IMG/VR virus record: IMGVR_UViG_3300027759_000002
Location: 115,755 to 179,754 of that record
Source: a virus
Length of the DNA stretch: 64,000 nucleotides
Strand: one strand, 5' to 3'
The notes under the pieces were generated by a model. It was not told the DNA's origin and made no database searches. It saw only the letters and a program-made list of their open reading frames with translations. Both the position numbers and the translations under genes were made by a program. Below are positions 2,554 through 18,913 of this stretch, piece by piece; position 1 is the stretch's first letter, and the number at the start of each line of letters is the position of its first letter.

Positions 2554-2628
2554 GGGCTGATAGCTTAATGGTAAAGCAGTGAACTCATAATTCATTGAGT
2601 CTAGGTTCAATTCCTAGTCAGCCCACCA
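2554..2628 (+). tRNA. tRNA-Ile2(CAT): tRNA with CAT anticodon, probably Ile2 (lysidine type)
   Basis: Cloverleaf GGGCTGA/TCAGCCC-ACCA, loop CTCATAA; resembles the bacterial Ile2 scaffold; Met not excluded. Confidence 0.85.
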
Positions 2629-2641
2629 ATTTTAAAAAAAT

Positions 2642-3157
2642 ATGAAAACAAAATTTCGTAATGCATATATGAAAGTGGCCGAGACATTTGCACAATTGTC
2701 CTCGGCTCGCAGACTTCATGTTGGTGCTATTGTAGTCAAAGATGATAGAATCATTTCAATTGGTTACAATGGTATGCCTTCAGGTTGGGATAATGATTGT
2801 GAAGATAAAGAATACATGAGTGTTGATGCTGGCGGTTGGTTGGATTTGAATGAGATTGAAGAACGCTGGCCAAACAAAGAACAGATGCTTCCAAAGGAAG
2901 ACAATCGTTGGAGAAGATATGCACTCAAAACTAAACCAGAGGTTTTACATGCTGAAACTAATGCGATTGCAAAACTTGCTAAGTCTACCGAATCTGGTAT
3001 GGGTGCTACTATGTTTGTTACCCACGCTCCATGTTTGGACTGTGCCAAACTTATCTACCAAAGTGGTATTAGCAGTGTTCTATATCGGAACTCTTATCGG
3101 AGTGATGATGGTATCGAATTCCTACAAAAAGCATCAGTCTGGGTAGAAAAAATCTAA
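2642..3157 (+). CDS. cd: dCMP deaminase
   Basis: VGAIVV, GYNG, HAE.NAI, THAPCLDCAK zinc motifs. Confidence 0.95.
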   Translation: MKTKFRNAYMKVAETFAQLSSARRLHVGAIVVKDDRIISIGYNGMPSGWDNDCEDKEYMSVDAGGWLDLNEIEERWPNKEQMLPKEDNRWRRYALKTKPEVLHAETNAIAKLAKSTESGMGATMFVTHAPCLDCAKLIYQSGISSVLYRNSYRSDDGIEFLQKASVWVEKI

Positions 3158-3201
3158 TTCTCCTAAATAACTTGGGGTAATTGTGCCCTTAGGAGACCAG
3201 G

Positions 3202-3708
3202 ATGATTATTCGTGTGGTTAACTGTCCAGACAAAGATTTTAAGCCCTTTGTTGAAAGAGCTGCCCAATTCTTCGCTAAAGAATTAATACCTAATACACGA
3301 ATAAGAAATAATTGTATAACAGAAATTAAATTTTGTACCAAAATAACTGAATATGGTTTTGCTAGTATTGAAGATTATAATACAAGAAAACTACCTAGAG
3401 AATTCCTAATAGAAATAAATCCAAATATCGGATCCAGAAGAATACTGGAAACCTTGGCGCATGAAATGGTTCATGTGAAACAATATATTGATGGTGAAAC
3501 GAATGATGAGTTGACCAGATGGCGAGGTAAGAAGGTTGATCCAGATAAGATTGATTATTGGATTCAGCCATGGGAGATAGATGCTTACGGCCGTGAACCT
3601 GGACTTATTACAAAGTTTGCTGTATCAGAAAATCTATGGGAAATACTTGATGATTTTGTTGATCCATCTGGTCCAATAAATTATAACCCGATTGCCTGGA
3701 AAAAATAA
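3202..3708 (+). CDS. Putative zinc metallopeptidase-fold protein
   Basis: TLAHEMVHVKQY (HExxH) and a downstream PWEIDA. Confidence 0.7.
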   Translation: MIIRVVNCPDKDFKPFVERAAQFFAKELIPNTRIRNNCITEIKFCTKITEYGFASIEDYNTRKLPREFLIEINPNIGSRRILETLAHEMVHVKQYIDGETNDELTRWRGKKVDPDKIDYWIQPWEIDAYGREPGLITKFAVSENLWEILDDFVDPSGPINYNPIAWKK

Positions 3709-3711
3709 AAT

Positions 3712-4245
3712 ATGTCACATCCAACTCAACAAGAGTTTGTAAAAAAGTTATCATCGGATTTTCCACAAAACTTCAATAACATAAAGATGTTGGAAGTTGG
3801 TAGTTTAAATATCAACGGTACCATGAAGATACATTTTAATGAATGTGAGTATGTTGGTGTTGACGTTGATGCAGGAAAAGATGTTGACTTGGTTTGTGAA
3901 GGCCAGCTTGTCGACCATGCAGATGGCACATACGACACCACAGGTTCTTGTAATTGTTTCGAACACAATCCACATTGGATAGAAACATTTCAAAACATGT
4001 ATCGTATGACCAAAAAAGATGGATTAGTTTTTATCGTAGTACCAACAACAGGTTATCCTGAACATGGTACATCTAATAAAGCACCAAATGATAGTCCTTT
4101 AACCATTGCAAAAGGTTGGGAATATTACAGTAATCTTACAGAAGAAGATTTTTGTAAAAACTTTGATATGGATAGTATGTTTCATACTTACAAGTTTGAA
4201 ACAAATAATACTCCCGAATTATTTTTTTACGGATTTAAAAAATAA
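3712..4245 (+). CDS. Class I SAM-dependent methyltransferase
   Basis: MLEVGS, YVGVD...GKDVD, FEH, MTKKDG. Confidence 0.8.
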   Translation: MSHPTQQEFVKKLSSDFPQNFNNIKMLEVGSLNINGTMKIHFNECEYVGVDVDAGKDVDLVCEGQLVDHADGTYDTTGSCNCFEHNPHWIETFQNMYRMTKKDGLVFIVVPTTGYPEHGTSNKAPNDSPLTIAKGWEYYSNLTEEDFCKNFDMDSMFHTYKFETNNTPELFFYGFKK

Positions 4246-4258
4246 TTTTAAAAACCGC

Positions 4259-4287
4259 TTGCCAAGACATAAAAGTTCCTATATAAT
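4259..4287 (+). promoter_or_regulatory. Sigma70 promoter for the leader-peptide transcript
   Basis: TTGCCA(4259)-17 nt-TATAAT(4282); predicted +1 is about the A of ATG 4294 (leaderless mRNA). Confidence 0.8.
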
Positions 4288-4293
4288 AACACT

Positions 4294-4404
4294 ATGAAAA
4301 ATTTTAAACATAAACCCTTTACGTTACAGTCCGAGTATCGCACAATTAATTGTGGTGATAGCTCATGGGCGCCGACTGGGTTTTGTGTAAAGAGAGAGAA
4401 CTAA
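4294..4404 (+). CDS. Putative attenuator leader peptide (36 aa, all 20 amino acids)
   Basis: MKNFKHKPFTLQSEYRTINCGDSSWAPTGFCVKREN; its 3' part pairs with the downstream terminator stem. Confidence 0.75.
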   Translation: MKNFKHKPFTLQSEYRTINCGDSSWAPTGFCVKREN

Positions 4405-4434
4405 TACATAAGTTCTAAAAAAGACTTCAAACAC

Positions 4435-4470
4435 AAGACCCTAGACCTAAAAAATCTAGGGTTTTTTGTT
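4435..4470 (+). terminator. Intrinsic terminator (attenuator 3:4 hairpin)
   Basis: AAGACCCTAGA-9 nt-TCTAGGGTTTTTTG. Confidence 0.85.
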
Positions 4471-4523
4471 TGTTGTTTCAATACAACACAGTGGTTGCCA
4501 GGTCATCGAATCTGGTATACAAT
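4471..4523 (+). promoter_or_regulatory. tRNA operon promoter P1 with upstream palindrome
   Basis: TGTTGT-N6-ACAACA (4471-4488); TTGCCA(4495)-17 nt-TACAAT(4518). Confidence 0.75.
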
Positions 4524-4529
4524 ACACAC

Positions 4530-4546
4530 TGTTCTTTAAAAATTTG
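4530..4546 (+). promoter_or_regulatory. rrn-type boxA antitermination element
   Basis: TGTTCTTTAAAAATTTG versus E. coli rrn boxA TGCTCTTTAACAATTT; just after the promoter and repeated at 5055. Confidence 0.7.
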
Positions 4547-4557
4547 TCGTAGTTTAT

Positions 4558-4631
4558 TGGGGTATAGCATAGTGGTAGTGCTGCGGACTTTGAATCCGTA
4601 GGTCCTTGTTCGATTCAAGGTACCCCAGCCA
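4558..4631 (+). tRNA. tRNA-Gln: tRNA-Gln(TTG)
   Basis: Cloverleaf, loop CTTTGAA, encoded CCA. Confidence 0.95.
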
Positions 4632-4701
4632 TATAAAAACACATTAGAGATAAGCAGGAACTGGTTCGAAACGGGTCGCCTCGTTTAGTGTGTTTCTATA
4701 T
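4632..4701 (+). ncRNA. Candidate spacer ncRNA, copy 1
   Basis: ATATAAAAACACA...TGTGTTTCTATAT closing stem shared with 5359-5427. Confidence 0.5.
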
Positions 4702-4793
4702 GGAAGATGATGCAGCGGGGTTGGTCCTGCGACTGGCCTTGAAAACCAGGTTCTCAGAAATGGGATGGGGTTCGACTCCTCCGTCTTCCGCCA
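4702..4793 (+). tRNA. tRNA-Ser: tRNA-Ser(TGA)
   Basis: GGAAGAT/GTCTTCC-GCCA, loop CTTGAAA, long variable arm. Confidence 0.9.
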
Positions 4794-4798
4794 AACAT

Positions 4799-4886
4799 AG
4801 AAGGTTGCCCGAGCGGTTAAGGGAGCAGTTTGCTAAACTGTCGTTGCGAAAGCGGCGCATCGGTTCGAATCCGATACCTTCTGCCA
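4799..4886 (+). tRNA. tRNA-Ser: tRNA-Ser(GCT)
   Basis: AGAAGGT/ACCTTCT-GCCA, loop TTGCTAA, long variable arm. Confidence 0.95.
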
Positions 4887-4892
4887 AAACAT

Positions 4893-4968
4893 GTAGGTGT
4901 GACCCGAAAGGCTAGGGAGCAGATTGCAAATCTGTTACATGCAGGTTCGATTCCTGTCACCTACTCCA
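4893..4968 (+). tRNA. tRNA-Cys: tRNA-Cys(GCA)
   Basis: GTAGGTG/CACCTAC-TCCA (U73), loop TTGCAAA. Confidence 0.95.
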
Positions 4969-4972
4969 AACA

Positions 4973-5025
4973 TGTTGTAGGAATACAACAGTCTGGTTGA
5001 CAATGATTCATGGTTGTGTTATACT
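4973..5025 (+). promoter_or_regulatory. tRNA operon promoter P2 with upstream palindrome
   Basis: TGTTGT-N6-ACAACA (4973-4990); TTGACA(4997)-17 nt-TATACT(5020). Confidence 0.8.
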
Positions 5026-5054
5026 TCATCTATGAATTGAGAAATCAATCAAAC

Positions 5055-5070
5055 GTTCTTTAAAAATTTG
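5055..5070 (+). promoter_or_regulatory. Second rrn-type boxA
   Basis: GTTCTTTAAAAATTTG, identical to 4531-4546. Confidence 0.7.
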
Positions 5071-5081
5071 TTGTAGTTAAT

Positions 5082-5156
5082 GCTCCGTTCGTCTATCGGT
5101 TAGGACGCTGCCCTTTCAAGGCGGAAAGACCAGTTCGATTCTGGTACGGAGTACCA
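5082..5156 (+). tRNA. tRNA-Glu: tRNA-Glu(TTC)
   Basis: Cloverleaf, loop CTTTCAA, CCA. Confidence 0.95.
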
Positions 5157-5280
5157 TTTGTTTTGCTGACGTAAGCGCTTGAGTAAACGTCAACTCTAAC
5201 TAACTATGTGTATAAACGGTAATGCTGCAGCTAAATCCGTTGAGCATAGCAAATAGTGCGTCAGCAAAACAAATGGTAGT
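5157..5280 (+). ncRNA. Candidate structured ncRNA closed by a 22-bp stem
   Basis: 5152-5173 is complementary to 5257-5278; internal hairpins. Confidence 0.6.
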
Positions 5281-5283
5281 TAT

Positions 5284-5358
5284 GGGGGTATAACTTAACG
5301 GCTAAAGTAGTAGGCTTTTAACCTATTAATCAGAGTTCGATTCTCTGTACCCCTACCA
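5284..5358 (+). tRNA. tRNA-Lys: tRNA-Lys(TTT)
   Basis: Cloverleaf, loop CTTTTAA, CCA. Confidence 0.95.
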
Positions 5359-5427
5359 TATAAAAACACACTTCCGACAGCAGGCGGAACTCAGGATAAG
5401 TCCATTCGGGTGAGTGTGTTTCTATAT
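5359..5427 (+). ncRNA. Candidate spacer ncRNA, copy 2
   Basis: Same terminal stem as 4632-4701 with a different interior. Confidence 0.5.
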
Positions 5428-5520
5428 GGAGGCATTGTAGATATGGCGTGTTCTGCAGCGGACTGTAAATCCGTTCCCCCGTGGTAAACAATGTTGGTTC
5501 GACTCCAACTGCCTCCACCA
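5428..5520 (+). tRNA. tRNA-Tyr: tRNA-Tyr(GTA)
   Basis: GGAGGCA/TGCCTCC-ACCA, loop CTGTAAA, long variable arm, enlarged D loop. Confidence 0.9.
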
Positions 5521-5712
5521 AATCCCGTTACTACTTCCGTTAAAGTAGCGTTTGATTAGCGATAGAGATCCGGTGGCAGAAAACCGTTAGCGAGAGAAAT
5601 CTCAGGCTCTGATAGGCAGTTCCCTCTGCACACAGACATTAGAATAAAAGGGATGGACAGAGTAACTTCTCAATTAAGGGCTTGTGTGGAAACAAGTAGC
5701 TTATCCTAATTT
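5521..5712 (+). ncRNA. Candidate ~190-nt pseudoknotted ncRNA
   Basis: No ORF; multiple hairpins; loop TCCCT (5621) can pair with AGGGA (5649). Confidence 0.5.
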
Positions 5713-5787
5713 GGTCTTAAAGTGTTCATGGACGCACATCAGCCTGTCACGCTGAAAGAAGGGGATCGTTACCCCTTAAGACCGCCA
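5713..5787 (+). tRNA. tRNA-Asp: tRNA-Asp(GTC)
   Basis: GGTCTTA/TAAGACC-GCCA, loop CTGTCAC, T loop ATCGTTA. Confidence 0.9.
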
Positions 5788-5812
5788 AATAATTGTTGTG
5801 AAGGAAAAGAAA

Positions 5813-6169
5813 ATGAATATAAACGATATGGTTGGAAAAGTATTCACATCGGTAACACAAGATGGTTATGAGATGGTATTTGCGAATGAAACTGAAAAAT
5901 TCAGATTCTTCCATTATCAAGATTGTTGCGAAACAGTTTACATTGAAAGCATTGTAGGTGAGTTATCGGATTTAGAAGGCGAAACACTTTTGATTGCTGA
6001 AGAAGTATCAGGTGAAATACCAGAACCTAAAGAAGATGAATACATTGAATCTCGCTCATGGACATTTTACAAATTTGCTACACGCAAAGGTTATGTTGAT
6101 GTTCGTTGGTTGGGAGAATCAAACGGTTACTATTCCGAATCAGTAGATTTAGAATACGAGTTAGTATAA
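5813..6169 (+). CDS. Hypothetical acidic phage protein
   Basis: ORF with SD AAGGA; H.QDCCE.V and RWLGESNGYYSE motifs familiar from phage hypotheticals. Confidence 0.75.
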   Translation: MNINDMVGKVFTSVTQDGYEMVFANETEKFRFFHYQDCCETVYIESIVGELSDLEGETLLIAEEVSGEIPEPKEDEYIESRSWTFYKFATRKGYVDVRWLGESNGYYSESVDLEYELV

Positions 6170-6176
6170 AGAATAT

Positions 6177-6251
6177 TCCAGAGTAGCACAGCGGTAGTGC
6201 AGTTGACTGTTAATCAATTGGTCGTAGGTTCGATCCCTGCCTCTGGAGCCA
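6177..6251 (+). tRNA. tRNA-Asn: tRNA-Asn(GTT)
   Basis: Cloverleaf, loop CTGTTAA, GCCA. Confidence 0.95.
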
Positions 6252-6465
6252 ATACGTTCCGCTTGGTTAGCGGATACTGTGACCCGCAGGATAAGAAGTG
6301 AGGTGACTCTCAAGGGTGGTAGTCTTTTTACCGAAAGGCCGCTGGCAATGCGTTAACGATCCTGGTCGGGAAGCGGGTGGAGGTTATGGGTGTATTCCCC
6401 TTGAAAAAGGACATGTTTACAACTATGATATAATTACCGCCGCAGGATGCAGAGCACTTAATTTC
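6252..6465 (+). ncRNA. Candidate ~210-nt GC-rich structured ncRNA
   Basis: CAGGAT/ATCCTG and ACCCGC/GCGGGT long-range stems, further hairpins, no ORF. Confidence 0.55.
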
Positions 6466-6539
6466 GCCCTATTAGTATAATGGCATTACACCTGTTTTGT
6501 AATCAGGTTACGGCAGTTCGATTCTGTCATGGGGCACCA
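6466..6539 (+). tRNA. tRNA-Thr: tRNA-Thr(TGT)
   Basis: Cloverleaf, loop TTTGTAA. Confidence 0.95.
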
Positions 6540-6545
6540 GTTTTT

Positions 6546-6621
6546 CTCTCTGAAGCGTTATCAGGTTGCGTACACGGTTTGGGGCCGTGTGGTCAAGGTT
6601 CGAATCCTTGCAGGGAGACCA
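6546..6621 (+). tRNA. tRNA-Pro: tRNA-Pro(TGG)
   Basis: CTCTCTG/CAGGGAG-ACCA, loop TTTGGGG. Confidence 0.9.
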
Positions 6622-6629
6622 GTTTTTTT

Positions 6630-6704
6630 GGGGGCAGCAGTGGGCTGCGGCGTTCCCTTGCAAGGATCGTGACTAGAAGGATTCGATTTCCTCGGCCTCC
6701 ACCA
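6630..6704 (+). tRNA. tRNA-Ala: tRNA-Ala(TGC), atypical fold
   Basis: G3:U70 acceptor pair, loop CTTGCAA, 4-nt D loop, bulged T stem. Confidence 0.8.
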
Positions 6705-6708
6705 ATTA

Positions 6709-6783
6709 GGTTCAGTAGCATAGTGGCAGTGCAGCATCTTCATACGGTGCGTTGTGTGAGTTCGATTCTCACCTGAACCACCA
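6709..6783 (+). tRNA. tRNA-Met: tRNA-Met(CAT), probably elongator
   Basis: GGTTCAG/CTGAACC-ACCA, loop TTCATAC. Confidence 0.85.
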
Positions 6784-6789
6784 AATTAT

Positions 6790-6864
6790 GGGCGATTAGT
6801 AAAATGAATATTACACAAGGCTACGAACCTTGAAGTGGGAGTTTGATTCTCTCATCGCCCTCCA
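6790..6864 (+). tRNA. tRNA-Arg: tRNA-Arg(ACG)
   Basis: Cloverleaf, loop CTACGAA. Confidence 0.9.
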
Positions 6865-6868
6865 AAAT

Positions 6869-6943
6869 GCCGAGGTAGCTCAGTGGTAGAGCAGCGTCTT
6901 GATAAGGCGTTGGCCAAGAGTTCAATTCTCTTTCTCGGTACCA
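6869..6943 (+). tRNA. tRNA-Ile: tRNA-Ile(GAT)
   Basis: Cloverleaf, loop TTGATAA. Confidence 0.95.
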
Positions 6944-6946
6944 AAT

Positions 6947-7020
6947 TTCTCGCTGGTGTAATGGCAGCATAGCGGTCTCCAAAACCGTTGGTTGGGGTTC
7001 GAGTCCCTAGCGGGATGCCA
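6947..7020 (+). tRNA. tRNA-Trp: tRNA-Trp(CCA)
   Basis: Cloverleaf, loop CTCCAAA, GCCA. Confidence 0.9.
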
Positions 7021-7041
7021 ATTTTAAAAAAGGTGATTAAT

Positions 7042-7527
7042 ATGAAAAATTTCAATATAGAAGAAGTCAGACAATACCTTGCAAATCAAGGTCCTGATAC
7101 CAAGGTTTATCTTGGTGCCGACTCTGAAAGAATCAGGGTAAATGGTGTTTGGTATGCTGACTATGCTCTAGCAGTTGTAGTTCATATTGATGGCCGACAT
7201 GGTTGTAAGATTTTCGGATATGTTCACCGTGAATTGGATTACGACCATAAGAAAAGTAAACCTGCTATGAGGTTGATGACTGAAGTTTATAAAGTTTCAG
7301 AATTGTTCCAATCATTAGCAGAAGTGTTGGAAGATTATCATGTTGAAGTTCATCTTGATTTAAATAAAGATGATATTCATGGTAGTTCATGTGTTGTTCA
7401 GCAAGCGATTGGTTATATCAAAGGTACATGTAATATGACACCAATGGTTAAACCAGATGCACCTGCTGCAAGTTTTTGTGCTGATAGATTGAAAAGAATC
7501 TTGGCAGACCAAGAAGCACTTCAATAA
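7042..7527 (+). CDS. RNase H-like YkuK/DUF458-family protein
   Basis: KVYLGADSE, RLMTEV, VEVHLDLN, SFCAD acidic catalytic-like residues; SD AGGTG. Confidence 0.75.
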   Translation: MKNFNIEEVRQYLANQGPDTKVYLGADSERIRVNGVWYADYALAVVVHIDGRHGCKIFGYVHRELDYDHKKSKPAMRLMTEVYKVSELFQSLAEVLEDYHVEVHLDLNKDDIHGSSCVVQQAIGYIKGTCNMTPMVKPDAPAASFCADRLKRILADQEALQ

Positions 7528-7530
7528 TAT

Positions 7531-7605
7531 GGAGAAATTAGTTTAGTGGTAAAACCACGGGTTGTGATTCCGTTATCACCAGTTCGATCCTGGTATTTCT
7601 CCCCA
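7531..7605 (+). tRNA. tRNA-His: tRNA-His(GTG)
   Basis: 8-bp acceptor with G-1:C73, loop TTGTGAT. Confidence 0.95.
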
Positions 7606-7610
7606 AATAT

Positions 7611-7685
7611 GCCCCGTTAGCTCAGTGGTAGAGCAGTGCTTTTACACGGCGAAGGTCGGCAGTTCGAAACTGTCACGGGGTACCA
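7611..7685 (+). tRNA. tRNA-Val: tRNA-Val(TAC)
   Basis: Cloverleaf, loop TTTACAC. Confidence 0.95.
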
Positions 7686-7689
7686 ACAT

Positions 7690-7765
7690 GCTGCTTTAGC
7701 TGATGTGGTCATAGCGGTGGTCTGAAGAACCATTGAAAGAGGTTCGATTCCTCTAGGCAGCACCA
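7690..7765 (+). tRNA. tRNA-Phe: tRNA-Phe(GAA)
   Basis: Cloverleaf, loop CTGAAGA. Confidence 0.95.
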
Positions 7766-7770
7766 AATAT

Positions 7771-7847
7771 GCCCAAGTGACGGAATAGGTATACGTACTT
7801 GATTCAAAATCAAGGTTATGTGGGCTCGAATCCCACCTTGGGTACCA
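7771..7847 (+). tRNA. tRNA-Leu: tRNA-Leu(CAA) with short variable loop
   Basis: Loop TTCAAAA; Leu-type D arm; variable region only about 5 nt. Confidence 0.9.
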
Positions 7848-7848
7848 T

Positions 7849-7922
7849 GCTCTTATAGGTAAATGGCATACCACATCCATGGTAAGGATGTATCCTAAGT
7901 TCGATTCTTAGTAGGAGCACCA
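7849..7922 (+). tRNA. tRNA-Thr: tRNA-Thr(GGT)
   Basis: ACATCC/GGATGT stem, loop ATGGTAA. Confidence 0.85.
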
Positions 7923-8119
7923 ACTTGTTTTAATGTTGTTAAGATAAATTCTTTTTCTTGTGTGATATATAATTCATCATCTTCAAAAGTTTTTATCTTA
8001 GTATCATATGATGGAACAAATTCAGAATCAACACAGTAGTAACCATTAGGTTCATATGTTTGTTGTGCATACAATCCGTAAAACATTTCTACTGTAGGTC
8101 TTTTTGAAGTTGGTATCAT
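7895..8119 (-). CDS. Hypothetical 74-aa protein antisense within the tRNA array
   Basis: ORF MIPTSKRPTVEMF...; late-promoter-like AATAAATA at 8125-8132 on the - strand. Confidence 0.55.
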   Translation of the reverse strand: MIPTSKRPTVEMFYGLYAQQTYEPNGYYCVDSEFVPSYDTKIKTFEDDELYITQEKEFILTTLKQVGAPTKNRT

Positions 8120-8132
8120 ATGAGTATTTATT

Positions 8133-8209
8133 GCCCCGGTGACGGAATTGGTATACGTGTTGGTCTTAGAAGCCAAATTTTGAGAGTTCGAGTCTCTCCT
8201 GGGGCACCA
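8133..8209 (+). tRNA. tRNA-Leu: tRNA-Leu(TAG) with short variable loop
   Basis: Loop CTTAGAA; variable region ATTTT. Confidence 0.9.
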
Positions 8210-8214
8210 AATTT

Positions 8215-8289
8215 CTGGCGTTAGTATAATGGATAATACAGTAGGCTTCTACCCTTCTAATGGGAGTTCGATTCTCTCACGCCGGACCA
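8215..8289 (+). tRNA. tRNA-Arg: tRNA-Arg(TCT)
   Basis: Cloverleaf, loop CTTCTAC. Confidence 0.9.
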
Positions 8290-8306
8290 TTTTTTAGGAG
8301 TTTATT

Positions 8307-8885
8307 ATGCCAGCAGTATTTTTAGTAAGTGACACACACTTTGGTCACGCTGGTGTGTGTAGATTTCTTCGTGATGACGGAACAAAACTTCGGCCATGGG
8401 ATAATCCCGATGAAATGGATGAAGAAATGATTAAGCGTTGGAACGAAACAGTCAGACCAAACGATAAAGTTTACCATCTTGGTGATGTTGTTATTAATCG
8501 TAAAGCAATGAATACTCTATATAGACTTAACGGTGATAAGGTTCTTATTCGTGGTAACCATGATATCTTCCGTGATGAGGAATACAGACAACACTTTCGT
8601 GAACTACGTGCTTATCATGTAATGAATGGAATGATCCTGTCACATATTCCAATTCATACGGAAAGTCTTGGTCGTTTCGGTGTAAACATCCATGGCCATT
8701 TACATTCCAATCGTGTTCAGATTCGTGGGTTCAATGGTAAACCAATGGGTATTGATAACAGATACCATTGTGTTTGTGTTGAACAAACAGATTTTAGACC
8801 GATTCTTTTTGAAGATGTTATCAAACGAATTAAAGAAGAAGGTGGTGAGGTCGGTTTCAAAAGTGGAAACGACCGTGCTATGTGA
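8307..8885 (+). CDS. Calcineurin-like metallophosphoesterase
   Basis: SDTHFGH, HLGDV, GNHD, SH.P, NIHGHLH. Confidence 0.9.
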   Translation: MPAVFLVSDTHFGHAGVCRFLRDDGTKLRPWDNPDEMDEEMIKRWNETVRPNDKVYHLGDVVINRKAMNTLYRLNGDKVLIRGNHDIFRDEEYRQHFRELRAYHVMNGMILSHIPIHTESLGRFGVNIHGHLHSNRVQIRGFNGKPMGIDNRYHCVCVEQTDFRPILFEDVIKRIKEEGGEVGFKSGNDRAM

Positions 8886-8886
8886 T

Positions 8887-8969
8887 GCGAGTATGGGGGA
8901 ATTGGTAGACCCATCAGACTTAAAATCTGCCGCCTCGGCGTACCGGTTCGACTCCGGTTACTCGTACCA
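8887..8969 (+). tRNA. tRNA-Leu: tRNA-Leu(TAA)
   Basis: Loop CTTAAAA, normal long variable arm. Confidence 0.95.
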
Positions 8970-8979
8970 AAAATAATGC

Positions 8980-9008
8980 TTGACTTCTTAATAAGAAGCC
9001 TATATAAT
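8980..9008 (+). promoter_or_regulatory. Sigma70 promoter for the Gly tRNAs and groES
   Basis: TTGACT-17 nt-TATAAT; spacer region holds the inverted repeat CTTCTTA-A-TAAGAAG. Confidence 0.75.
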
Positions 9009-9019
9009 ACACACATGAT

Positions 9020-9094
9020 GCGGGTATGGTGCTAGTGGTAACACAAGACCTTGCCAAGGTTTAGTTGTGAGTTCGATTCTCACTACCCGCTCCA
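9020..9094 (+). tRNA. tRNA-Gly: tRNA-Gly(GCC)
   Basis: GCGGGTA/TACCCGC-TCCA, loop TTGCCAA. Confidence 0.95.
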
Positions 9095-9116
9095 AGTTAA
9101 CTACAACAGATTTTAT

Positions 9117-9190
9117 GCGGGATTAGTTTAGTGGTAAAACAGTAGATTTCCAATCTCCGGTTGAGAGTTCGATTCTCTCATCCCGCTCCA
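9117..9190 (+). tRNA. tRNA-Gly: tRNA-Gly(TCC)
   Basis: GCGGGAT/ATCCCGC-TCCA, loop TTTCCAA. Confidence 0.95.
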
Positions 9191-9196
9191 TTTAAT

Positions 9197-9263
9197 GCGG
9201 TTTGTAATAGTACGATACAAGGTACCCCCTTGTGTTAACTGAGCAAAGCAGTAGACCGCTCCA
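9197..9263 (+). ncRNA. Non-canonical tRNA-Gly-like RNA (67 nt)
   Basis: GCGGTTT/AGACCGC-TCCA acceptor; three arms; no TTCG in the T loop and no GG in the D loop. Confidence 0.65.
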
Positions 9264-9276
9264 TTTTGAGGACACT

Positions 9277-9522
9277 ATGAATATTAAACCCTTGCATGAT
9301 AAAGTATTGATTGAACGTATTGAGAATGTCAAAGAGACCGCTTCAGGCATCATCCTAAAACATTCCGAAGATCCAGATAAAGCAAGAGTACTTGCAGTTG
9401 GTCCGGATGTTACAGAAGTCCAGGTCGGTGATGTGGTTCAACCAGACTGGGGTAAGGCCGCAGCAGTGCAAGATTATTTCGTGGTGAAGATTGAAGACAT
9501 AGCTTACATCTACGGAGAGTAA
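9277..9522 (+). CDS. groES: Co-chaperonin GroES
   Basis: IKPLHDKVLI, TASGIIL, VLAVGP, VQVGDVV. Confidence 0.9.
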   Translation: MNIKPLHDKVLIERIENVKETASGIILKHSEDPDKARVLAVGPDVTEVQVGDVVQPDWGKAAAVQDYFVVKIEDIAYIYGE

Positions 9523-9524
9523 AC

Positions 9525-9752
9525 ATGTCTGATGGTGGTAAAGGTTCTAGTCCAAGGCCGTTTAGTGTTTCACAGAAAACATTTGGTAATAACTACGACA
9601 ATATTTTTAGAAAAAAATCACCAAAAGAAATACAAGAAGACAAATACGAACAAGAAGAATTTGATAGAATTTTAGAAGAAAATCGTATGCGCCAAAAGGC
9701 TTTAGATGCCATGGTGGCAGAAAATCAAAGATTAGGTTTATACGACAACTAA
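9525..9752 (+). CDS. Hypothetical protein
   Basis: MSDGGKGSSPRPFSV N-terminus; SD GGAG. Confidence 0.7.
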   Translation: MSDGGKGSSPRPFSVSQKTFGNNYDNIFRKKSPKEIQEDKYEQEEFDRILEENRMRQKALDAMVAENQRLGLYDN

Positions 9753-9755
9753 TAT

Positions 9756-9828
9756 AGCGGGTTGGTGAAATGGTATCACAGTGGGCTCATAATCCTCAGT
9801 TCCGGTTCGACTCCGTGACCCGCAACCA
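9756..9828 (+). tRNA. tRNA-fMet: Initiator tRNA-fMet(CAT)
   Basis: 1:72 mismatch (A.A), GGG in the anticodon stem, loop CTCATAA. Confidence 0.85.
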
Positions 9829-16139: not shown

Positions 16140-16459
16140 TGATTGAGGGAATAGATTACTGCTACATCTATCCAAAGGATGACAAAACAGCAGTCAACAT
16201 TAAATTTTTGGAAGGTCCTTATAAAGATACCATATTCAAATATGGTAAGGTAAAGTTTAAGGAAGAAAACGAACAGGCCTATTTACTTTTTGCTTACGAT
16301 GTGTTAGAATCACCTGTAAAGAAGCCAGCCAAACTGGAAAAAGATGATGACTTTAAAAACTACATTGGTGACTTATTGGTGGAAATAATGTCATCTAACA
16401 TGGAACAGGAAGTAATTGATGAAACTGGAACAGACGATTCTAAAAAATCTAATTTATAA
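16139..16459 (+). CDS. Probable gp40-like protein
   Basis: Occupies the gp40 position between uvsX and gp41; assignment mainly by synteny. Confidence 0.5.
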   Translation: MIEGIDYCYIYPKDDKTAVNIKFLEGPYKDTIFKYGKVKFKEENEQAYLLFAYDVLESPVKKPAKLEKDDDFKNYIGDLLVEIMSSNMEQEVIDETGTDDSKKSNL

Positions 16460-17810
16460 TGAAGAATATTTACGCAAGGTTTTACCATTTCTAAAATCAG
16501 AATATTTTACAGACAGAAGCGACAAAACATTATATGATGAGATTGCATCATTCACAGAAACTTACAATTCTACACCAACGGTTGAAGCACTTGTACTGGC
16601 CGTCAAAGAAAGGCGAAATCTCTCAGATGAGGAAGTGGAGAAGTGTGAATCTTATCTAAAAGAGATTGAGAAAACTAAAGGTGAAGAATCCAAGGTTCAA
16701 TGGCTTGTTGACAAGACCGAACAGTTTTGCCAAGAGAAGGCCATTTATAACGCTGTATTGGGGTCTATTTCAATCCTCGATGGCAAGGACAAAACCAATG
16801 ACAAAGGTTCGATTCCCAAAATACTATCAGATGCCTTAGCGATAAGTTTTGACAATTCTGTTGGCCACGATTATCTTGAAAACTCGGATGAACGATATGA
16901 TTTCTACCATCGTAAAGAAGAACGAATCCCTTTTGACTTAGAGTTCTTTAACAAAATCACAAAAGGTGGCTTGCCTAATAAGACGCTTAATATAGCTCTT
17001 GCCGGAACTGGTGTTGGAAAAAGTTTGTTCATGTGTCATGTGGCTGCAGGCTGTATGGTACAAGGCAAGAATGTTCTTTACATCACAATGGAAATGAGTG
17101 AAGAAAAGATTGCAGAACGTATTGATGCCAACTTATTGAATGTCACGATTGATGACCTTGTAAGTTTACCAAAAGATTTGTATGATAAAAAGATTAATAA
17201 ACTCCGTGAAAAGACTGTGGGTAAACTTATCATTAAAGAGTATCCAACAGCGTCTGCAAGCAGCATACATTTTCGTACCTTACTCAACGAGCTTAATCTT
17301 AAAAAGTCTTTTGTTCCTGATATTATTTTCATTGACTACCTCAATATTTGTTGTTCTTCTCGCATCAAAGCAGGAGCAAATGTCAACTCATATTCCTACG
17401 TTAAATCCATCGCCGAGGAGTTGCGAGGTCTTGCCGTTGAGTTCGGAGTACCTATTGTTTCTGCGACACAAACAACTAGAAGTGGATTTACTTCTTCCGA
17501 TCCCGGACTTGAGGACACAAGTGAGTCTTTTGGTTTGCCGGCAACCGCAGACTTGATGTTTGCATTGATTTCTTCCGAAGAACTAGAAGAAATGGGACAG
17601 ATTATGGTAAAACAATTGAAGAATCGTTATAATGATCCAACGCATTTCAAACGATTCACTCTAGGTATTGATAGGTCGAAAATGAGATTATATGATATTG
17701 AACAGTCTAGCCAAGATGGCATCACAGATTCTGGTCAAGATAAACCACTCAACACATTTGGTAACAGAGAGAAAACACAGAAGAAATCATTCGATGGATT
17801 TAAAGTATGA
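16419..17810 (+). CDS. gp41: Replicative DNA helicase (gp41)
   Basis: LAGTGVGKS, IFIDYL, SATQTTR, QLKNRY. Confidence 0.97.
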   Translation: MKLEQTILKNLIYNEEYLRKVLPFLKSEYFTDRSDKTLYDEIASFTETYNSTPTVEALVLAVKERRNLSDEEVEKCESYLKEIEKTKGEESKVQWLVDKTEQFCQEKAIYNAVLGSISILDGKDKTNDKGSIPKILSDALAISFDNSVGHDYLENSDERYDFYHRKEERIPFDLEFFNKITKGGLPNKTLNIALAGTGVGKSLFMCHVAAGCMVQGKNVLYITMEMSEEKIAERIDANLLNVTIDDLVSLPKDLYDKKINKLREKTVGKLIIKEYPTASASSIHFRTLLNELNLKKSFVPDIIFIDYLNICCSSRIKAGANVNSYSYVKSIAEELRGLAVEFGVPIVSATQTTRSGFTSSDPGLEDTSESFGLPATADLMFALISSEELEEMGQIMVKQLKNRYNDPTHFKRFTLGIDRSKMRLYDIEQSSQDGITDSGQDKPLNTFGNREKTQKKSFDGFKV

Positions 17811-18913
17811 AATTAGAATTTAATGATGCAGTTCATTGCGCCAAAGTATTTGAAGATTACTTTGGTAGTTTTGACCGTATTGATGAGTATATGCGTGACC
17901 AAAAGTTGAATTCTTTGGCCGAATTGCCATCCAATCCTTTGTTTCCGATTGAAGATGAGTTGTTTCAAGACTTCACAATGAATCCAAAAAATATGAATTT
18001 TGAGGTTGTCGAGATTGATAATGAAACTTGGACCAATCTATTGAACATCACTTCATCTCATGTAAACATTCCGCCAGTTGGCCGCAATGTTAAACTGGCA
18101 GTGCGTGAAACCAATACAGGAAAGTACGTAGGATTCATCCGTCTTGGTTCACCTGTAATCAACTGTAAGCCACGTAATGATATGCTTGGTCAAGTGTTTA
18201 CACAAAAACCTGAGTGGGGTAAACGATTCAATAATTCTGCAATGATGGGTTTTGTTATTGTACCTGCACAACCATTTGGTTATAATTACCTTGGTGGTAA
18301 ACTGTTGGCTGCAATCTGCACTTCACATGAAGTACGTGAGATTGTAAATGTAAAGTATGGAATGAACCTGTGTCTCTTTGAAACAACTTCTTTGTATGGT
18401 AGTTCAAAGACTGTATCGCAATATGATGGTATGAAACCATATATCAGATATAAAGGCCTGACAGATTCTGATTTTCTTCCTATGATGCACGGCAAACCTT
18501 ATTCTGACCTACGTGATTTCGTACAAGATAAAGTCGGACCTTTGGTTGAAGATGTTGCTTCTAGTAAGAAACTGAAAATCTCTATGAAGATTATTTCCCT
18601 CACTAAAGCTGCACTTAAAGGTACACCTGAAGGGGATACATTCATAGCAACGATTGGGAAAGCAAAAGGGTTGACAGAGCAAAAAAGATATTACACCAGT
18701 GACTATGGCTTTAAAAACATGGTTGACTATGTAAACTGTAAGACGGACGTGCTTATTCCTGGTGAAAACTATGAAAAACACAATCTGGTAAACTTGATTG
18801 AATGGTGGCGAAATAAGGCTTGTAATCGGTATGAAACTCTGTACAATGAGAAACGGTTAAAAACCGAACTAGAAATTTGGACTTCTGGAAAGGAGATCCA
18901 AATTATAAGATAA
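17807..18913 (+). CDS. DUF4338/DruA-like protein
   Basis: VGFIRLGS, VPAQPFGYNYLGGKLLA, ETTSLYG..SQY recalled from DUF4338. Confidence 0.6.
   Translation: MKLEFNDAVHCAKVFEDYFGSFDRIDEYMRDQKLNSLAELPSNPLFPIEDELFQDFTMNPKNMNFEVVEIDNETWTNLLNITSSHVNIPPVGRNVKLAVRETNTGKYVGFIRLGSPVINCKPRNDMLGQVFTQKPEWGKRFNNSAMMGFVIVPAQPFGYNYLGGKLLAAICTSHEVREIVNVKYGMNLCLFETTSLYGSSKTVSQYDGMKPYIRYKGLTDSDFLPMMHGKPYSDLRDFVQDKVGPLVEDVASSKKLKISMKIISLTKAALKGTPEGDTFIATIGKAKGLTEQKRYYTSDYGFKNMVDYVNCKTDVLIPGENYEKHNLVNLIEWWRNKACNRYETLYNEKRLKTELEIWTSGKEIQIIR

Follow-up and report, generated by a model that had tools for sequence, protein, structure and literature searches.

A reduced tRNA-Gly-like RNA gene in T4-like and Mu-like phages, a candidate glycyl carrier for Mom- and DruA-type enzymes

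The DNA analysed here (the window, 64,000 nucleotides) is the closing part of an IMG/VR phage genome of 179,754 bp that has terminal repeats (record IMGVR_UViG_3300027759_000002; G000 below). At positions 9197–9263, on the plus strand, it carries a 67-nt gene for a mini tRNA-Gly-like RNA, hereafter the element, which a covariance model recovers and which covariation among related phages confirms as a real, conserved and selected RNA gene. The element is best explained as a paralogue of tRNA-Gly, carried by the phage and reduced in structure. It keeps the nucleotides that mark a bacterial tRNA for glycine, has lost features associated with decoding, and has relatives in other phages that lie directly behind genes for Mom or for DruA-family proteins. 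By analogy with characterized systems we propose, with a probability of about 0.6, that it is a private, non-translating glycyl carrier for a GNAT enzyme of the Mom/DruA type.

An RNA gene conserved among related phages

Standard tRNA scanners pass the element over, as had been anticipated in an earlier note made from the sequence alone. ARAGORN did not call it in its bacterial (-t), relaxed (-ps) or mitochondrial (-mt) mode, and the Rfam tRNA model (RF00005) gave no match to it at the gathering threshold or at E ≤ 10; it is thus among neither the 26 tRNAs that ARAGORN finds in the window nor the 25 found with Rfam. The element matches no Rfam family, and its RNA family is unannotated. A structural descriptor, run over both strands of the 64 kb, has a single site, which is the element. 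An initial covariance model, R1, contained the 65-nt type only and missed the window copy; it was superseded by R2, built without any window-type sequence, whose top match in the window is 9197–9263 (32.7 bits, E 5e-6), with a score above those of both true Gly tRNAs.

Relatives were fetched through the protein encoded next to the element, Cpn10, which yielded 31 related contigs. The element stands at the equivalent place in 29 of these, with compensatory changes in every helix. A pattern search of IMG/VR gave 78 further loci, and the collection amounts to about 40 distinct variants of 64–70 nt in the tRNA arrays of T4-like phages. One such array, L072, has two tandem members 5 nt apart, a UCC-type of 65 nt (2465–2529) and a GCC-type of 68 nt (2535–2602). 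Among GenBank phages, blastn with three family members returned no match, and a blast of the region matched canonical tRNAs only; in prokaryote genomes the family architecture was present in none of the 141 pattern matches listed, all of them chance matches, a listing that does not establish its absence.

Covariation in related phages, which the earlier note had put forward among the checks to make, was found in the helices of three independent sequence sets. The 65-nt type has 98.2% of cells paired and 12 pairs changed on both sides. For a set of 34 sequences the paired fraction is 97.4%, against 38–49% for slid controls, and for the window-type subfamily it is 97.1%, against 35–51%, with 10 pairs changed on both sides; in the long hairpin of the latter subtype, this holds for 6 of the 9 pairs. 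The folding z-score of the element is −3.67. Its minimum-free-energy fold, an elongated structure (7–9 paired with 47–49, 12–15 with 42–45), was rejected, as these pairs never covary and two of them are broken in 3–4 of 9 sequences. Mean pairwise identity is 0.68 for the element versus 0.73–0.82 for the neighbouring true tRNAs, such that its rate of evolution is only slightly above theirs. Overall, the family is conserved over hundreds of contigs in two phage groups.

In the covarying fold, the 5′ acceptor strand GCGGUUU (9197–9203) pairs with AGACCGC (9253–9259) to form seven pairs, one of them U-G, followed by the discriminator U73 (9260) and an encoded CCA (9261–9263); within this 3′ segment (9253–9263), CCGC-U-CCA is invariant. 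In place of a D arm stands a mini hairpin, GUA-AUAG-UAC (9204–9213), without G18 and G19. Its stem is backed by one compensatory change, to GUG/CAC (A10-U15 to G-C), in L455 and L461, which bears out the minimal D arm of the earlier note; elsewhere in the family this position holds another mini hairpin or connector, or none. There follows an extended anticodon-like hairpin (9214–9236) with a 9-bp stem, its strands being GAUACAAGG and CCUUGUGUU, and the pentaloop UACCC (9223–9227), in which ACC at 9224–9226 occupies tRNA positions 34–36. The T-like arm, ACUG-AGCAAAG-CAGU (9238–9252), comprises a 4-bp stem, in which pairs 42–56 and 43–55 covary, and a 7-nt loop without T-psi-C; its stem abuts the 3′ acceptor strand. 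Most other subtypes have a 5-bp stem here and the loop UGRGAAU. All these parts lie on the plus strand, and the 67-nt length, the acceptor GCGGTTT/AGACCGC, the TCCA end and the T-like arm ACTG-AGCAAAG-CAGT are as the earlier note described them. Its middle arm, ACAAG-GTACCCC-CTTGT, was rightly centred on ACC but drawn too short, since the stem is really 9 bp, the loop is UACCC and G32-C38 covaries.

Across the family, the fold consists of a 7-bp acceptor, a 9–13-nt connector or mini hairpin that replaces the D arm, a 6–9-bp hairpin with a five-base loop, and a 4–5-bp T-like stem with a 7-nt loop stacked on the acceptor, which ends in U73 and the encoded CCA. When aligned with R2, the connector of the element (..UAAC..) falls on the 3′ D-arm half of the canonical tRNA-Gly nearby (9020–9094), which suggests that the mini tRNA arose through deletion of the 5′ half of a D arm. 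Mimicry of an anti-Shine-Dalgarno sequence was also considered, given that the 3′ side of the hairpin resembles ACCUCCUU in L013, but the resemblance is not kept across subtypes and the idea was dropped.

Glycine identity and decoding features

The bacterial glycine identity set consists of U73, G1-C72, C2-G71, C35 and C36 (PMC9976931). This whole set of sequence determinants is present in the element and invariant in 39 of 39 members; the earlier note had recognized G1-C72, C2-G71 and U73 among them. In full, the invariant positions are G1-C72, C2-G71, G3-C70 and G4-C69 (GCGG/CCGC), U73, CCA and the CC of the loop. Acceptor pairs 5–7 show five pair types each among the 39 variants, and position 34 is free, being U, A, G or C over the family.

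The loop that presents C35 and C36 departs from that of a decoding tRNA. The closing pair 32–38 (G32-C38 here) covaries as G-C, A-U or U-A. In the ACC and GCC types a pyrimidine occupies position 37 (20/39; C37 in the element itself), the UCC type has G33 (18/39) instead of the near-universal U33, and some members have loops of 4 or 6 nt. Measured against a canonical tRNA, the element has the 7-bp acceptor, the discriminator, the CCA and the stacked T stem; it has neither a 7-nt anticodon loop with U33 and purine 37 nor a D arm with G18 G19 and a T-psi-C loop, its T loop being AGCAAAG. Without G18 and G19, no elbow would be expected to form. No member has G-C at T-stem pair 51–63, which is A-U or U-A in 26 of the 39. 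The phages that bear the element also encode canonical Gly(GCC) and Gly(UCC) tRNAs. To judge from the sequences, this pattern reads as selection under which the needs of glycyl-tRNA synthetase (GlyRS) were retained and those of the ribosome dropped.

Mom and DruA-family genes, and the setting of the element

Mom of phage Mu moves glycine from Gly-tRNAGly to the N6 position of deoxyadenosine in double-stranded DNA (PMC13219725; bioRxiv 10.1101/2023.03.24.534169). It accepts all three E. coli Gly isoacceptors and rejects Gly-tRNAAla, a discrimination probably made via the acceptor end (PMC13219725). Outside tRNA arrays, members of the element family are found next to genes for homologues of this enzyme and for DruA-family (PF14236) proteins. 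In L034 and L104, an element lies about 60 nt 3′ of a 441-aa (amino acid) DruA-family gene; in L050, a true homologue of Mom (PF25680, E 1.4e-63; PDB 8BV8, E 6.7e-62) has an element-like sequence directly after its Mom domain.

The adjacency was surveyed in 160 loci, namely 80 Mom loci of Mu-like phages from IMG/VR and 80 DruA loci of T4-like phages from the L104 clade. A 69–70-nt member follows mom in 23 of the 80 Mom loci, on the same strand and 0–489 nt past the Mom match; a further descriptor match, in L284, is AT-rich and unstructured and was excluded as false, hence 23 and not 24. In the closest Mom clade, a member is present in 20 of 24 loci, and of the four loci that lack one, three are sequenced for no more than 313 nt downstream. 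The Mom-linked version is GC-rich, retains a variable loop besides a mini D hairpin of 4 bp, and is 99% paired with seven compensatory pairs. At least 47 of the 80 L104-clade DruA loci contain an R2 member, in every case on the strand of the gene and starting about 5–80 nt past it. ARAGORN found no tRNA in any of the 160 loci, and a descriptor left open to any acceptor sequence retrieved only glycine-type elements there. Six loci, L410, L411, L414, L421, L455 and L461, have the subtype of the window copy (connector GUAAUAGUAC, T loop AGCAAAG) directly 3′ of DruA genes. There is one short element per genome, at one of two alternative sites, either in the tRNA array (G000–G004) or behind a DruA gene (the complete genome G006, and G007 and G009).

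In eight of the Mu-like Mom loci (L249, L256, L269, L270, L271, L272, L282 and L291), the mom frame reaches the RNA gene without meeting a stop and enters or crosses it by 39–93 nt. Excision of the RNA would therefore deprive the mom message of its stop codon, an arrangement that may couple production of the enzyme to that of the RNA.

The genome of the window has two candidate partner enzymes. A PF14236 profile search of G000 gave two matches, of 36.6 and 69.7 bits, both over the curated cut-off: a 368-aa GNAT-type protein encoded in the window (17807–18913, plus strand) and a 421-aa protein encoded about 3.8 kb before the window start (G000:110738–112003). There is no PF25680 (Mom) match in G000. 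Each of the five other complete element-bearing genomes (5/5) encodes two or three DruA-family proteins. Over residues 135–441, the 421-aa protein shares 73% identity with the L104 protein, whose gene precedes an element; no element lies behind the 421-aa gene in G000, and it is the adjacency in relatives that links element and enzyme there. The 421-aa protein is modelled with a GNAT fold (predicted local distance difference test score, pLDDT, 93.6). Among solved structures, the top match to this model is Mu Mom (8BV8_A, Z 9.7, root-mean-square deviation 4.3, 186 residues), and Foldseek ranked Mom second (E 7.8e-3). Neither phmmer nor a profile search against PDB sequences linked DruA-type proteins to Mom, so that a relationship between the two is suggested solely by fold comparison of the predicted model.

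Both DruA-family genes have recurrent or notable neighbours. A peptide deformylase gene lies directly 5′ of the DruA-type gene in G000 (110133–110738; L233:554–1159), in L104 (1531–2121) and in the Mosig locus L246, a conserved pairing. The gene for the 368-aa paralogue directly follows a gp41-type helicase gene (16416–17810), amid replication genes.

The phage itself is T4-like. Its DNA polymerase, of the gp43 type, shares about 50% identity with T4-like cyanophage polymerases, and a gp41 helicase, a primase, NrdA and rIIA are encoded as well. The 26-member tRNA array occupies window positions 2554–9828. Upstream of the element, on the same strand, are the canonical tRNA-Gly(GCC) (9020–9094) and tRNA-Gly(UCC) (9117–9190), both called by ARAGORN and Rfam, and the element begins 6 nt further 3′; the order of Gly(UCC) followed by the element is repeated in most tRNA arrays of relatives. 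In L024 (772, 1422), an insert of about 575 nt parts the two, and the place of the element before cpn10 is kept. A sigma-70-like promoter (TTGACT, 17 nt, TATAAT; 8980–9008, plus strand), a pattern match only, with 11 of 12 consensus positions, stands ahead of both Gly tRNAs, the element and cpn10. The GroES-like Cpn10 gene (9277–9522, plus strand; PF00166, E 5.3e-10) starts 13 nt past the CCA of the element. Cpn10 was rejected as a functional partner, since the adjacency is confined to the window's clade and elsewhere a tRNA comes next.

Two further features of these arrays may be recorded. A calcineurin-like metallophosphoesterase gene (PF00149; 8307–8885, plus strand) lies inside the array of the window, between tRNA-Arg(UCU) and tRNA-Leu(UAA), and its product could heal RNA ends in tRNA repair. 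In a related phage array (L102:1708, plus strand), ARAGORN reports a tRNA with anticodon CUA, labelled Pyl, which may be an amber suppressor.

Proposed role, rival explanations and meaning

We propose the following course for the element. It would be co-transcribed with the two canonical Gly tRNAs and excised as a tRNA is, because the acceptor/T-arm stack and the encoded CCA should satisfy RNase P and 3′ trimming. Host GlyRS would then glycylate it, since all known bacterial glycine determinants are retained, and the lack of a D/T elbow and of a normal anticodon loop would keep it off EF-Tu and out of ribosomal decoding. A phage transferase with a GNAT fold, of the Mom/DruA type, would draw its activated glycine from the resulting glycyl ester. 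By analogy with Mu Mom, the target would be a base in the phage's double-stranded DNA, glycylated for protection from host nucleases. A private carrier would decouple this demand for glycine from translation, much as the staphylococcal non-proteinogenic tRNA-Gly does for cell-wall synthesis.

The earlier note, which drew a parallel with the staphylococcal species, had left the role between a glycyl donor, a decoy and an uncharged-tRNA signal. The invariant identity, the non-decoding loop and the linkage to Mom and DruA favour the donor. The process to be served is another matter: by analogy it is likely to be DNA modification by a phage GNAT, which that note did not consider, and not cell-wall synthesis. 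Stated for the whole family, two unrelated lineages, T4-like phages of aquatic origin and Mu-like phages of GC-rich bacteria, would encode a private carrier RNA, kept off the ribosome, that receives glycine through host GlyRS and yields it to Mom/DruA-type enzymes for glycylation of the phages' own DNA. We advance this fuller statement tentatively, at somewhat less than even odds.

Several observations weigh against a glycyl carrier. As regards charging, GlyRS might fail to read C35 and C36 in a closed pentaloop or where the D arm is absent, and the GlyRS of T. thermophilus also uses G10 and U16 (PMC9976931). As regards the enzyme, other GNATs come within 1 Z unit of Mom in the fold comparison (many at Z 9.2, over about 147 residues), an hhalign comparison of the DruA-type alignment with the Mom alignment gave a probability of 0.6% and hence no link, and the Mom-like activity of DruA-family proteins is putative, being drawn by analogy. 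As regards the linkage, the element in G000 is beside neither DruA gene, these being about 13 kb and 8.5 kb away, and it is beside the DruA gene in 0 of 80 DruA loci of the window's clade. The cultured pelagiphages HTVC008M and Mosig have a DruA-type gene, and R2 run with speed filters, which a divergent copy could escape, found no element in them; Mu itself is without one. Because these three phages manage without a detected element, the RNA is evidently not required by the enzyme class, and it would be an optional supplement to host tRNA-Gly.

Other explanations have to be weighed against the same data. The element might be a working elongator tRNA-Gly with a reduced D arm that the ribosome does use, for example an isoacceptor unseen by host tRNA-cleaving defences. 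Its kind lies in tRNA arrays, on the same strand and at normal tRNA spacing, and most subtypes retain the 12-bp acceptor/T stack that EF-Tu binds. An 8–9-bp anticodon stem could offset the missing D stem, as D-armless mitochondrial tRNAs would suggest (PMC7609411); all four NCC anticodons are found, UCC and GCC types occurring in tandem in L072, and phage tRNAs that escape nucleases through altered anticodon loops are known (cited in 10.1101/2024.07.05.602228). However, a loop-closing pair that covaries as Watson-Crick, together with the G33, the pyrimidine 37 and the loops of 4 or 6 nt described above, speaks against decoding, and such a tRNA would be redundant with the canonical Gly tRNAs of the same arrays. 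Nor would codon supply explain why the sole tRNA-like gene in the 160 Mom and DruA loci is always one of glycine identity. We consider an elongator unlikely. A role as decoy or sink, drawing off host toxins that recognize tRNA-Gly by its acceptor end, such as the toxSAS FaRel2, which pyrophosphorylates the CCA, or the GNAT toxins TacT and AtaT2, which acetylate Gly-tRNAGly, appears quite unlikely as well. FaRel2 selects tRNA-Gly via G1-C72, C2-G71, G4-C69 and Pu5-Py68 (10.1101/2024.07.05.602228) and TacT reads U73 and G71 (PMC9976931); pairs 1–4, U73 and CCA are invariant in the element, which moreover evolves somewhat faster than true tRNAs. Yet pair 5–68 is purine-pyrimidine in just 10 of 39 variants, a decoy would not account for members sited tightly and on the same strand behind Mom genes in one phage group and DruA genes in another, unrelated one, and no such toxin is known for the hosts.

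Improbable, in our view, is a role as a mere tRNA-shaped processing signal, at which RNase P and 3′ trimming would split the tRNA transcript from the cpn10 message or set the 3′ ends of mom and DruA messages, the freed RNA being functionless. The 13 nt between the CCA and the cpn10 start hold no terminator, and cleavage in the eight Mom loci where the mom frame enters the element would shape the message. For such a purpose, however, an acceptor/T minihelix would suffice, which leaves the invariant glycine determinants, the CC of the distal loop and the long hairpin without a reason, and in most arrays ordinary tRNAs stand on both sides of the element. A decaying duplicate of tRNA-Gly that is not conserved, by which the earlier note would have stood refuted, is highly improbable: the match of the connector to the 3′ half of a neighbouring D arm fits such an origin, but decay does not fit with the compensatory changes, with conservation over hundreds of contigs from both phage groups, or with an identity level near that of true tRNAs (0.68 versus 0.73–0.82).

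The proposed glycyl carrier has partial parallels among known systems. One is Mu Mom (PF25680, 8BV8), a GNAT enzyme, close homologues of which (E 6.7e-62 to 8BV8) have the element family directly downstream. Unlike the phages described here, Mu relies on host tRNA-Gly and encodes no tRNA, and the window's phage differs in having DruA-family proteins in place of a Pfam Mom. The Mom papers searched, a jumbo-phage survey covering Mom and two reviews of non-canonical tRNAs, an incomplete coverage, describe no tRNA-like gene beside mom and no D-arm-reduced phage tRNA-Gly. Druantia DruA (PF14236, formerly DUF4338), to whose family the 421-aa and 368-aa phage proteins belong by curated cut-off, is known as part of a bacterial anti-phage system; here such proteins are phage-encoded, the 421-aa one after a peptide deformylase gene, and are paired with a mimic of glycine tRNA.

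On the RNA side, S. aureus also has extra tRNA-Gly species that keep glycine identity, the non-proteinogenic donors for the pentaglycine of FemXAB. These have lost the D-loop GG and the T-stem pairs read by EF-Tu, and their glycine is routed off the ribosome to a GNAT-fold transferase (PMC9976931); the type is marked by weakened EF-Tu binding through T-stem pairs 49–65 and 51–63. They are, however, cell-encoded full cloverleafs with normal anticodon loops that serve cell-wall synthesis, whereas the element is encoded by a phage, lacks a proper D arm and has a pentaloop that is closed; its genomic link is to Mom/DruA genes rather than to Fem genes, for which no search was made. Metazoan mt-tRNA-Ser(AGY) and nematode mitochondrial tRNAs resemble the element in having a short connector or mini hairpin for a D arm and in losing the elbow contacts but not the acceptor or the T arm (PMC7609411). 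Those tRNAs decode on specialised ribosomes with 7-nt anticodon loops; the loop of the element is non-decoding, and ARAGORN rejects it in mitochondrial mode.

Dedicated non-proteinogenic tRNA-Gly species and GNAT transferases that depend on Gly-tRNA are known already. If the proposed role is correct, the element would be the first dedicated tRNA-like cofactor for DNA modification, and it would mean that viruses supply, for the hypermodification of DNA, both an enzyme and their own carrier of its activated substrate, an extension of what was found for Mom in 2023/2026, its use of charged tRNA. It would also define an unannotated RNA family, overlooked by tRNA finders and Rfam in hundreds of phage contigs, and offer a natural minimal substrate for dissecting what GlyRS, RNase P, EF-Tu and GNAT transferases need of a tRNA. 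Finally, it would suggest that Druantia DruA is an aminoacyl-tRNA-dependent modifier of nucleic acids, and the large DruA/DUF4338 family of phages and bacteria would gain a testable biochemical hypothesis.

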